A stretch of 64,000 nucleotides of DNA, taken from NCBI GenBank assembly GCA_900551705.1, contig URWY01000004.1, forward strand, positions 15 to 64,014, written 5' to 3'. Position 1 is the stretch's first letter. Each line of letters begins with the position of its first letter. This DNA is from an uncultured Bacillota bacterium (lineage in GTDB: Bacteria > Bacillota > Clostridia > Christensenellales > UBA1242). The translations under genes were made by a program, and so were the position numbers. Below, piece by piece: positions 39,571-63,888 of this stretch. The notes beneath the pieces are model-generated. The model had not been told where the DNA came from and searched no databases. It saw nothing but the letters and a program-made list of their open reading frames with translations.

Positions 39571-39662
39571 TTTCAACAGCCCTTATTAAGAATAATCTTA
39601 TTTAAATAATAAATAAAAATATGTTTTGGCGGCAAATTTTAAAAACTTGTCGCTTTATTTAT

Positions 39663-61613: not shown

Positions 61614-61792
61614 AGATCCTCCAATAAAACATTAATATTATATCATAAGTTTTTATTTATTTTCAAACAGAAACAAATATAAAAAAGCATTCGACAAAAA
61701 AATATTTATTCCTAACGCGCTCTCAAGATTAGCGGGTCGTGCTACCGCGCATATACGCGACGATTTGCAAGTTAAGTTGCAATATAACACAC

Positions 61793-61834
61793 GCAGAAAA
61801 AAAAGAGAGAATGCTAACGCACTCTCTTTTTTTT
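61793..61834. terminator. Bidirectional terminator flanking tRNA-mimic element copy 1
   Basis: Stem AAGAGAG/CTCTCTT with an inner TGC/GCA stem. A8 upstream and T8 downstream, so it works on either strand. Confidence 0.6.
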
Positions 61835-61836
61835 CT

Positions 61837-61957
61837 TGGCGCAGAGAGGGGGATTTGCTTCGCTTTGAAAGTTGTTCTTCGCGGGTCGATGCACGCTTTC
61901 ATGCCGGCACTAAAAAACTTGCCAATGGCAACTGTTTTTACGCTTAGTTCAAATCCT
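61837..61957 (-). repeat. tRNA-3'-end-mimic element, copy 1 (associated with tRNA-Ser)
   Basis: About 120 nt. In minus-strand sense it ends ...CAAATCCCCCTCTCTGCGCCA: the last 11 nt are identical, and 17 of the last 20 match, the 3' end of the adjacent tRNA-Ser including CCA. It starts AGGATTTG, the complement of its own CAAATCC. The core aligns with copy 2. Confidence 0.55.
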
Positions 61958-62097
61958 AATAACAATACATTTCCAACAAAATTTTTCTTCGTGGAAACAA
62001 CTTCGCACGAGAGTACCGACCGAAATTGCTTAGCCAATTTCGCGTTTGGTCGGTAAAAAGGAAATTGCGTGCGAAAGAGCGATGTATTTTTTTTTGC
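61958..62097 (-). ncRNA. GC-rich, highly structured spacer between tRNA-Ser and element copy 1 (candidate ncRNA; strand uncertain)
   Basis: Nested perfect stems: TTCGCACG/CGTGCGAA, TACCGACC/GGTCGGTA, CGAAATTG/CAATTTCG, plus TTTCCA/TGGAAA. GC content is visibly above the surroundings. Overlapping ORFs on both strands look like artefacts. Confidence 0.35.
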
Positions 62098-62122
62098 AAA
62101 AAAAAATCGAGCAAAAGCCCGA
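62098..62122 (-). terminator. Terminator of tRNA-Ser
   Basis: Minus strand: TCGGGC-TTTT-GCTCGA (one G-U pair, which would be an A-C mismatch on the plus strand) followed by T9. Confidence 0.6.
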
Positions 62123-62135
62123 CAATTTCTCTTTT

Positions 62136-62225
62136 TGGCGCAGAGAAGAGGATTCGAACCTCCGGAACCTGTTACAGTTCGCACGCTTTCCAAGCGTGTG
62201 CCTTAAACCGCTCGACCATCTCTGC
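62136..62225 (-). tRNA. tRNA-Ser (anticodon GGA), CCA encoded
   Basis: Cloverleaf by hand: acceptor GCAGAGA/TCTCTGC, anticodon stem CACGC/GCGTG with loop TTGGAAA, long variable arm, T-arm GGAGGTTCGAATCCTCT, 3' GCCA. Confidence 0.92.
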
Positions 62226-63297: not shown

Positions 63298-63631
63298 ATA
63301 ATTAACTCCCATTTTGTGATGTTAAGTATAAGTCGATTAGTTATATTAATCAAATACATATCTATTATAAGAGTTATAATTCGTAGTTATATAAGAATGA
63401 AAATCATAGCAAATTTTTAATTACATTAAACAATACAATCTTAACTTAGTTTTTTAATGAAAAAAGAACAAAGAAGAAATAATAAAACTGTATAATAATT
63501 TATATTATATAGAAGAGTAAAAATCGCACCCAAAATATACCCAAAAAAATTACGCAAAAGTGCAAAATTTTAACAAAAATTCAATTTTTCAAGAAAATAA
63601 AAAAAGTGCTATATGCGCCTATTTTAGGGTG

Positions 63632-63756
63632 TGGTGCGGATAAAGGGACTCGCTCCGCTTTGAGAGTATTGCGTTGCAGGTCGATGCTCGCTATCACGCC
63701 GGCGCTAAAAAACTTGCCACTGGCAACTTTTTCTTAACGCTTAGTTCGAGTCCTTT
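63632..63756 (-). repeat. tRNA-3'-end-mimic element, copy 2 (associated with tRNA-Leu)
   Basis: In minus-strand sense it ends CGAGTCCCTTTATCCGCACCA, identical over 21 nt to the 3' end of the adjacent tRNA-Leu including CCA. It starts AAAGGACTCG, the complement of its own 3' stem. The core aligns with copy 1. Confidence 0.55.
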
Positions 63757-63785
63757 CTGTTTTAGCAAATAGCAAAAAAAAGTAT

Positions 63786-63805
63786 AAAAAAACACCCAAT
63801 GGGTG
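63786..63805 (-). terminator. Terminator of tRNA-Leu
   Basis: Minus strand: CACCC-ATT-GGGTG immediately after CCA, followed by T7. Confidence 0.55.
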
Positions 63806-63888
63806 TGGTGCGGATAAAGGGACTCGAACCCCCACGGTCGCCCACCAGATCCTAAGTCTGGCGCGTCTACCAATTTCGCCATATCCGC
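63806..63888 (-). tRNA. tRNA-Leu (anticodon UAG), CCA encoded
   Basis: Acceptor GCGGATA/TATCCGC, anticodon stem CCAGA/TCTGG with loop CTTAGGA, long variable arm, T-loop TTCGAGT, 3' ACCA. Confidence 0.92.

Follow-up and report, generated by a model that had tools for sequence, protein, structure and literature searches.

Why should a short non-coding element end in a copy of the 3' end of the very transfer RNA (tRNA) gene behind which it stands? The question is raised by contig URWY01000004.1 of an uncultured Bacillota bacterium, of which a stretch of 64,000 nucleotides (nt; 'the window' below) was analysed. One such element lies at 61837-61957 on the minus strand, ∼180 nt 3' of tRNA-Ser(GGA), and a sister copy lies at 63632-63757, also on the minus strand, ∼50 nt 3' of tRNA-Leu(TAG). 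A sequence-only reading of this DNA took the Ser element for a mimic of the tRNA 3' end within a transcript of tRNA, spacer and element, a purpose that our results do not support. We give a probability of about one half to a different explanation: the element is the core, with its arms, of a miniature, gene-less integrative unit mobilised in trans, and the apparent mimic is the duplication of an attachment (att) site. Relatives stand behind many tRNA and transfer-messenger RNA (tmRNA) genes in gut bacteria, and the likeness to tRNA, best read as duplication of the attachment site, for this reason looks like an insertion scar and not like mimicry.

The Ser and Leu copies are ∼80% identical across ∼125 nt. 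Ten members of their subfamily (S1) were used to build a covariance model, which finds only these two sites in the window (134.4 bits, E ∼1e-33 for Ser; 147.3 bits, E ∼1e-36 for Leu); at E<=1 its sole further match is the palindromic hairpin read on the opposite strand. The core patterns matched 0 times in 100 shuffles. The sequence-only reading was right, then, that this is a real repeated element with a core shared beyond chance, with ends fitted to the adjoining tRNA and with a terminal pairing kept across copies. In both copies the 3' arm repeats the tRNA in sense from T-loop position 56 onward, and positions 53-65 recur as their reverse complement in the 5' arm; the arms therefore pair with each other (helix P1). 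The Leu 3' arm (63627-63652) is identical to 63801-63826 at 26 of 26 positions, including 5 nt past CCA, which lie outside the mature tRNA. The Ser 3' arm, CAAATCCCCCTCTCTGCGCCA (61837-61857), copies the segment CGAATCCTCTTCTCTGCGCCA of tRNA-Ser, from T-loop to 3' end: its final 11 nt are the tRNA's 3' end and 17 of the last 20 positions match, as had been noted, and the neighbouring A is common too (last 12 nt identical, 18/21 overall).

Two of the structural arguments made for the pair of copies carry less weight. The terminal pairing of GGATTTG (61950-61956) with CAAATCC (61851-61857) is present, and two C-G to T-A changes do separate it from the Leu stem GGACTCG/CGAGTCC. This 'double compensatory change' is insufficient alone as evidence of structural selection, because each arm copies the T-loop of its own tRNA. 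The internal palindrome was read correctly (CGCCGGCG vs TGCCGGCA), but its supposedly preserved symmetry is lost in relatives (CGCTGGCG, CGCCGTCCG, CGCCGGTG, CACCAGGCG), and its two halves are parts of two different helices. The arms of the Ser copy agree with each other (TTCAAAT, A57) against the adjoining tRNA (TTCGAAT, G57), and the acceptor part matches the tRNA exactly. Such a pattern would be expected if the tRNA from which the unit originated had a TTCAAAT loop and the crossover fell in the acceptor/CCA segment; loci with that loop, L044 and L024/L057 (L numbers denote individual loci in our collection), have the 5' arm of the Ser unit and also its linker, module A (see the table).

An exact-pattern scan for P2, a hairpin of the core, collected 46 loci from genomes taken one per species and 10 from metagenomes, and ∼30 of these are true relatives. 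In metagenome-assembled genomes (MAGs) of Clostridia they are found 60-350 nt downstream of genes for tRNA-Leu, Ser, Arg, Gly, Thr, His, Lys and Pro and for tmRNA, in the same orientation as the gene; the targets so far are nine tRNAs, tmRNA and ppdK, and the units measure 175-300 bp. There are two subfamilies in Clostridia, S1 (the window type) and S2 (L019, L034, L046, L021, L018, L011 and L038), which have P2 in common and differ elsewhere. In S1 the 3' arm matches the adjoining tRNA exactly over 22-29 nt and starts at -21 from its 3' end (C56) at every locus; in S2 the exact match is 18-26 nt long, with its start at -18 (position 59), again at every locus. The 5' arm is in both subfamilies the reverse complement of the local T-arm, from -24 or -26. 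Each unit has its own terminator right after the 3' end of the target gene, and in L034 and L044 the identity beyond CCA takes in the whole terminator and the spacer. Units stand in tandem in L034, L044 and L046, and mixed core types share the same arm design in L028 and L048. Two related contigs (L040 1745-2110 and L058 2397-2680) differ by a ∼65-nt partial unit behind tRNA-Glu, and the oldest displaced 3' end of that array has decayed (CTCATCGGTATAACCA vs CCCGTCGGGATCACCA). Integration at tRNA genes is known by direct repeats of the 3' end, a replacement 3' end and tandem accretion. The direct repeats here (26/26 for Leu, 18/21 for Ser, 18-29 nt exact in relatives) and their fixed start in the T-loop conform to that pattern; the integrase gene expected inside such an element is absent, the units having no open reading frame (ORF).

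Several other origins for these boundaries were considered and rejected. A target-site duplication from a staggered cut does not fit a left boundary that is fixed and a right boundary that varies from +0 to >60 nt. A retroviral-type primer-binding site was suggested by the S2 arm of exactly 18 nt (positions 59-76), and is rejected because identity passes CCA into the trailer and terminator and because it is the tRNA-sense strand that has support. One-sided truncation, a possible sign of copying-in, is seen in several distal units that stop just beyond the 5' arm, but the reverse holds for L015 and the tRNA-Glu array. As for an invertible switch, both core orientations occur between families, never at a single locus.

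The relatives outside Clostridia extend the arm rule to a protein-coding gene. Seven Treponema loci, including one from the isolate Treponema sp. C6A8, whose element lies at 4388-4541 of L029 in NZ_JHVB01000006, have the P2 module with the flanks GTTAA..TAG at the 3' end of ppdK (pyruvate phosphate dikinase). In their long arm the final 30-odd bases of the coding sequence are repeated in diverged form with frame and stop kept (GAQAVIKCAK vs GAQAVIKANK, each followed by the stop), their short arm is an inverted copy of ∼14 nt around GCTCAGGC, and the core is oriented opposite to ppdK. The tRNA-Glu unit (L040, L058) is reversed too, with the S1 motif GGCGTGATAGC..GCGGnGC on the other strand. In all cases the 5' arm, in core sense, is antisense and the 3' arm sense to the target, and the long arm is whichever adjoins the body of the target gene, to which it supplies the 3' end and terminator. 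Judged from the sequences, this rule is what integration into the 3' end of a gene with restoration of that gene looks like, and given relatives that target ppdK or are reversed, tRNA mimicry would be impossible. Separately, we observed a -10-like box 5-6 nt before P2 in Treponema-type units (L010, L014, L023, L026, L029, L030, L047 and L056), varying within TAnAAT (TAAAAT, TACAAT, GATAAT, TATAAT), and TTGATT 18 nt above it in the long arm; the pair resembles a promoter starting RNA at P2.

Mimicry of tRNA was rejected on the combined evidence of identity past CCA, an unpaired acceptor strand, tmRNA and ppdK as targets, reversed cores, tandem units and terminators of the units' own. No 5' strand complementary to the copied 3' acceptor strand exists in the element, and as for a cloverleaf or minihelix, ARAGORN and Rfam RF00005 match just the two true tRNAs of the window, even at E<=10. 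A broader version of the idea, closer to the sequence-only reading, is that these are small RNA genes beside tRNA genes, cargo or resident, whose product is the folded core (a regulator, a scaffold, or an insulator or terminator) and whose tRNA-derived ends act in the RNA, e.g. by pairing with tRNA or pre-tRNA or by marking the RNA for tRNA-end processing. We consider this unlikely. It would account for a GC-rich island within an AT-rich genome and for covariation and strand-specific wobble pairs in relatives. None of 4227 Rfam families, tRNA, tmRNA and T-box included, matches the element. In every S1 and S2 locus the element points the same way as the tRNA, and it has a terminator 3' of its 3' arm (in the Ser element a 9-bp hairpin plus T8 at 61806-61827; a hairpin with T8 had been noted there), yet a terminator also stands between each tRNA and its element. 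The one after tRNA-Ser (62106-62123 plus T9), which had been called weak and open to read-through, is not obviously so, with 7 bp and 4 G-C pairs. Extended -10-like boxes lie just before several 5' arms (TGATATAAT in L059, TGGTACAAT in L048), but no promoter passed the scan upstream of either window copy. All nine differences between the Leu copies of the window and of L042 spare the arms and P2, which would suit a functional RNA; identity past CCA, relatives at ppdK or in reverse orientation that cannot mimic a tRNA, the unpaired acceptor strand and the decay of displaced arms in some loci (L040/L058, L048 unit 2) would not.

If the unit is integrative, it would have entered the 3' end of tRNA-Ser site-specifically, and the sister unit that of tRNA-Leu. 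Its circular form would run 5' arm, structured core, 3' arm, terminator and spacer. Through a crossover within the 3' arm, the body of the tRNA gene would receive the unit's copy of the tRNA 3' end, with its terminator, and the duplicated 3' end would stay by the core as the supposed mimic. The 5' arm would be an inverted copy of the crossover region that pairs with the 3' arm (P1) when single-stranded and belongs to the attachment site. The unit encodes no recombinase and must therefore be moved in trans, most simply, we infer, by the tyrosine integrase of a co-resident or visiting element; a unit moved in this way would be a 175-300-bp counterpart of a cis-mobilizable element (CIME).

A possible model for the arms is found in integrase-borne islands, in which the P arm of the phage-type attachment site (attP) carries a T-arm-like inverted motif that the 5' arm resembles. 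IMG/VR was scanned with the tmRNA 3' end, which gave >120 loci. In 35 of the IMG/VR loci the tmRNA identity begins in the T-loop (starts G53 to C56), and at the tmRNA loci examined a P4-type tyrosine integrase with an Arm-DNA-bind_3 domain lies next to it. Seven of 16 distinct P arms have the T-arm-like motif GAGTTCAAyTCC..GAAC, ∼145-155 nt upstream of the displaced 3' end, compared with 0/16 downstream controls. From islands and prophages at tmRNA, therefore, a fixed boundary in the T-loop and an inverted T-arm-like motif ∼100-150 nt upstream have classical attP precedent. P4-type islands at tRNA and tmRNA genes share with the units the direct repeat of the 3' end, the start of identity in the T-loop, the replacement 3' end, tandem accretion (including at ssrA) and, 100-150 nt upstream of the displaced end, a T-arm-like motif in inverted form. 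They differ in that islands measure kilobases and units 175-300 bp, the units have neither genes nor integrase, their 'P arm' is GC-rich with covarying helices, and the same core is found on many targets. The P-arm motif, seen as a hairpin GAGTTCAAyTCC..N13..GAAC in L073, L078, L081, L111, L114, L179 and L187, may itself be a feature of this class of attP, for integrase binding or termination, that has gone unrecognised.

A number of observations weigh against an integrative origin. The units contain no ORF, and no integrase or recurrent ORF was found within ∼3.5 kb in an all-against-all BLASTP of ORFs from 29 loci, where the shared neighbours were just ppdK (Treponema) and housekeeping genes; the annotated parts of the window likewise hold no integrase or other mobile-element genes. 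A full-length element with this core was found in none of 185,579 species genomes, IMG/VR, phages and plasmids, though absence of a match is no proof. For neither window locus did the neighbours (genes for a radical SAM protein, a hydrolase, an M20 peptidase and a membrane protein) lead to an empty site: exact neighbour proteins lie on short contigs broken at the element, and distant orthologues lack synteny. Near-identical cores stand at four or more tRNAs in one genome lineage (window, L040, L042, L044), which is awkward for integration if each target needs its own protein specificity. The element has a GC content of 48-51%, compared with 31% for the genome and 21-32% for neighbouring intergenic DNA, and S2 cores contain compensatory helices; to our knowledge attP arms are not expected to be GC-rich or to have such helices. 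The window and L042 copies are conserved no better than the flanking intergenic DNA (93-96%). Finally, a double-stranded DNA circle of 175-300 bp is a stiff substrate for recombination.

Searches with parts of the units gave little more. BLAST of the elements of the window and of S2 against phages and plasmids returned nothing. Against Rfam 15 (4227 families), with the window and the loci of 10 relatives, the element was unmatched at gathering and at permissive thresholds (E<=1-10), and the only matches in the scanned loci were tRNA, tmRNA, T-box and ribosomal RNA (rRNA). In IMG/VR the hairpin pattern had 2 matches, both stand-alone hairpins. Candidates from other patterns in that collection fell away: the S2 3'-domain pattern gave 2 chance matches in a phage gene, the window tRNA-Leu arm one match in a phage tRNA cluster and the L034 tRNA-Lys arm 2 matches, one an intact tRNA and the other an att site in an anticodon loop, and the L012 tRNA-Arg arm had 0 matches. 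Literature searches for RNA-guided or miniature tRNA-targeting elements turned up nothing that matches.

In a plainer view the units are inert scars, i.e. att arms left by prophages or integrative and conjugative elements (ICEs) whose interior was deleted, with no present activity. We regard this as quite improbable. Decayed, truncated or nested units are indeed common (L040/L062 and L055; the distal units of L025, L028, L034, L048 and L015). The lack of conservation above the flanks between the window and L042 would suit scars as well, and there is good documentation of decayed elements accreting in tandem at tRNA genes (PMC5704250). But independent deletions would not yield the same compact unit across many tRNAs, genomes and two phyla, and neither arrays of identical units nor a 28-nt hairpin module with the flanks GTTAA..TAG common to Clostridia and Treponema would be expected of them. 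The genome, viral, phage and plasmid collections yielded no parent with this core, and the covariation is an argument for selection on folding.

Gene-less CIMEs are known already, as are integration at tRNA 3' ends and tandem accretion there (PMC5704250). CIMEs keep attL and attR, have lost the genes for integration and transfer, and are decay products of ICEs and of integrative and mobilizable elements (IMEs; PMC5704250). The units resemble them in their att repeats, in the lack of recombination and transfer genes, in standing in tandem at tRNA 3' ends and, on the integrative explanation, in a mobility that would depend on the integrase of a partner. Unlike CIMEs they have no parent that was found, and they look like a family in its own right, with arms that are interchangeable around a conserved folded core. 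A multi-target family of folded, GC-rich units of 175-300 bp common to Clostridia and Treponema is outside Rfam 15 and was not found in the literature searched.

The best evidence that the core folds comes from S2. RNAalifold gives seven helices with compensatory change in 14 of 43 pairs, 96% of the cells of the named structure are paired (84% in shuffles), and five measures are all above 500/500 shuffles and above all slid controls. The helix enclosing P2 varies across members, with CAAAAAGC/GCTTTTTG, CTGTTTTC/GAAAACAG, CATTTTTC/GAAAAATG, GAAGAAAC/GTTTCTTC and AAGCC/GGCTT. G-U pairs are conserved on the tRNA-sense strand only (S1: U-G 10/10 and G-U 6/10; S2: G-U 5/6). To this extent the earlier suggestion of selection on structure is borne out: covariation in the relatives is genuine and favours the tRNA-sense strand. 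For S1 the evidence for structural selection is thinner. There P2 is invariant, compensatory change is limited to P1, and this covariation is confounded because both arms copy the target; the minimum free energy (MFE) z-scores of the window copies (-0.29, -1.69) are unremarkable. The nine differences between the Leu copies of the window and L042 all fall in the 3' domain (0 in the arms or P2), for which we calculate a chance of ∼3 in 1000 if differences were evenly spread.

Such a core could have a more direct part in targeting. In this alternative the unit acts single-stranded as an attachment site presented by nucleic acid, either as single-stranded DNA, like the hairpins of attC and CTX attP, or as a guide RNA; P1 would rebuild the target duplex, or each arm would pair with one target strand, and a single structure-recognising enzyme would act in trans. 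With specificity placed in the arms, one enzyme could suffice for many targets. We hold this to be a minority possibility. The rule of an antisense 5' arm and a sense 3' arm holds in S1, S2, the Treponema and the tRNA-Glu types, P1 is found in every subfamily, the Ser arms agree with each other at A57 against G57 of the tRNA, and the same core stands at several targets per genome with no recombinase nearby. The compensatory changes in relatives (14/43 pairs, with 0/500 shuffles as high), the G-U/G-T pairs conserved on the tRNA-sense strand only and the RNA-gene-like GC content point the same way. On the other hand, no partner protein was identified, P1 is just 6-11 bp, the S1 covariation is in the arms only and the window-copy MFE z-scores do not stand out. 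The Treponema -35/-10-like pair would start an RNA after the 5' arm and preclude P1 in that RNA. In the window, the sense strand of the element is read as the leading-strand template, an assignment that follows from dnaN at 39626 (+) and the origin-type gene set. A fully programmable module, in which the folded core recruits one trans-acting enzyme and the target-derived arms present or guide the site by pairing, is slightly more doubtful again. It would mean that a change of arms retargets insertion to the 3' end of any gene, by a protein-sparing recombination specified by nucleic acid and distinct from IS110 bridge RNAs, attC and CTX-type attP.

Integron attC and the forked hairpin attP(+) of CTX phage are reportedly folded single-stranded attachment sites. 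The units are like them in having inverted copies of the site ∼100 nt apart that are able to pair and to rebuild the target duplex, in that recognition could be based on structure, in forming arrays and in that the inverted copy stays inside by one junction. They lack the GTTRRRY/RYYYAAC boxes and any dif-like site: their arms read NYNGAAC / GTTCRAN, so that the integron R-box GTTRRRY is replaced by GTTCRAN, the boundary lies after GTT (55/56) or at 58/59, a crossover point different from the G|TT of integrons, and the Treponema site has no GTT. The stem is short, as given above, and the spacer is a conserved multi-helix structure. Bridge (seek) RNA of IS110/IS1111 elements is a structured RNA in a mobile element that matches both target strands and is programmable (PMC11208160). 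The units, if they act as RNA, also have segments matching both target strands, but the hallmarks of bridge RNA are missing: there is no adjacent DEDD recombinase and there are no paired internal guide loops, the arms being terminal, mutually complementary and overlapping on the target, and the target duplication is at least 20 nt and not a 2-nt core. Miniature inverted-repeat transposable elements (MITEs) are likewise short, non-coding and trans-dependent, with terminal inverted repeats (here P1) and several copies per genome; in the units, however, these repeats are target-derived and variable, there is no short target-site duplication, insertion is strictly at gene 3' ends, and no related autonomous insertion sequence was found.

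Whichever enzyme may act, a conserved folded core with interchangeable arms, many targets and no local recombinase is the layout expected of targeting specified by nucleic acid. If active, these would be smaller than any other site-specific integrating unit so far described at tRNA genes, and as parasites, or passengers, of recombination systems, with no genes of their own, they would reshape the 3' flank, the terminator and the 3'-end copy of tRNA, tmRNA and ppdK genes in gut Clostridia and Treponema. They would also account for unannotated GC-rich islands and for assembly breaks beside tRNA genes in MAGs, and island finders that rely on duplicated tRNA ends would have to allow for them. Even if they are only scars, the reading as tRNA mimics is corrected.

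Repetition within the genome can be followed in the assemblies. L042, from a close relative of the window genome, has both units in place at 93-96% identity, and L040 and L044 are further contigs of the same MAG with units at other tRNAs. Logan short-read contigs of this organism start or stop in or by the element (L049 1-92, L064 1-99 and the start of L067), and two begin within P2; since contigs break inside the element, it must be repeated in that genome. A different attachment geometry with the same hairpin module is seen in L041 (6934-7345) at tRNA-Thr, where P2 cores are flanked by sense copies of the D-arm (5') and of the variable loop to the 3' end (3'), and upstream of the tRNA gene there is a displaced tRNA 5' end (nt 1-19).

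Features of the Ser and Leu units and their target genes in the window
Feature	Position	Strand	Description
Strong bidirectional terminator	61795..61836	-	directly 3' of the 3' arm
3' arm	61837..61857	-	CAAATCCCCCTCTCTGCGCCA; copy of the tRNA-Ser 3' end, T-loop position 56 to CCA; CAAATCC is the 3' strand of P1
Core 3' domain	61858..61905	-	GGCAUGAAAGCGUGC..variable..AAAGCGAAGC
P2 hairpin	61906..61943	-	long, A/U-flanked: GCGU AAAAACAG UUGCC AUU GGCAA GUUUUUU AGUGC
5' arm	61947..61957	-	AGGATTTGAAC, reverse complement of T-loop/T-stem GTTCAAATCCT; GGATTTG is the 5' strand of P1
Module A linker, 178 nt	61958..62135	-	terminator plus nested hairpin TTCGCACG..ACCGACC..CGAAATTG/CAATTTCG..GGTCGGT..CGTGCGAA
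Terminator after tRNA-Ser	62097..62123	-	GTCGGGCTTTTGCTCGAT + T9; would be the first part of the inserted unit
tRNA-Ser(GGA)	62136..62225	-	target gene; ARAGORN; Rfam tRNA, 51.9 bits
Sister copy	63627..63757	-	5' arm 63744-63756; core; 3' arm 63627-63652
Leu-unit linker, 48 nt	63758..63805	-	terminator ACACCCATTGGGTGT + T7, then A/T-rich spacer
tRNA-Leu(TAG)	63806..63888	-	target of the sister copy; ARAGORN, Rfam tRNA

Several parts of the Ser unit recur elsewhere. The strong terminator that follows its 3' arm looks like the original terminator of tRNA-Ser, because the same one stands directly 3' of an intact tRNA-Ser(GCT) in L057. The terminator now found after tRNA-Ser accompanies the element, together with module A, in L042, L044, L024, L055 and L057. 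Module A is conserved beside S1 elements at other tRNAs (L042, L044, L024/L060, L055 and L057), with 94.9% identity to L042 and a compensatory G-C to A-T change in L055 (CAAAATTG/CAATTTTG); it is present in one copy within the window and has no match in Rfam. In the 3' domain, the motifs GGCGUGAWAGCGA and AGCGGAGC are kept in S1 and the middle insert varies from 0 to 50 nt, with L012 as the minimal version. The P2 module is common to S1, Clostridia S2 and Treponema elements. It is flagged as terminator-like on both strands, yet it has 5 bp with 3 G-C pairs, and the hairpin also occurs solo in unrelated loci. These solo hairpins, AAAAAG-TTGCCAGTGGCAA-GTTTTTT, have neither arms nor core and are terminator-like (L001 2556-2582, L004/L036, L009 and L022); their hosts are a phage contig, Lachnospiraceae and Streptococcus MAGs and a Ruminiclostridium MAG.

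The rest of the window is ordinary Clostridia chromosome, with spoIVA, spo0A, dnaN, parB, mnmG/mnmE, a polC-type polymerase gene and the 5' end of a 23S rRNA gene. Between 29279 and 40822, ∼22-35 kb from the elements, parB, mnmG, mnmE and dnaN form a set typical of a replication-origin region. Next to the Ser unit, at ∼61725-61765, a bulged hairpin TCGTCGCG-TATAT-GCGCGG[TAGCAC]GA (minus strand) also adjoins S1 units in L042, L055, L057 and L024; in appearance it is a small repeat like repetitive extragenic palindromes (REP-like), and it is single-copy in the window.

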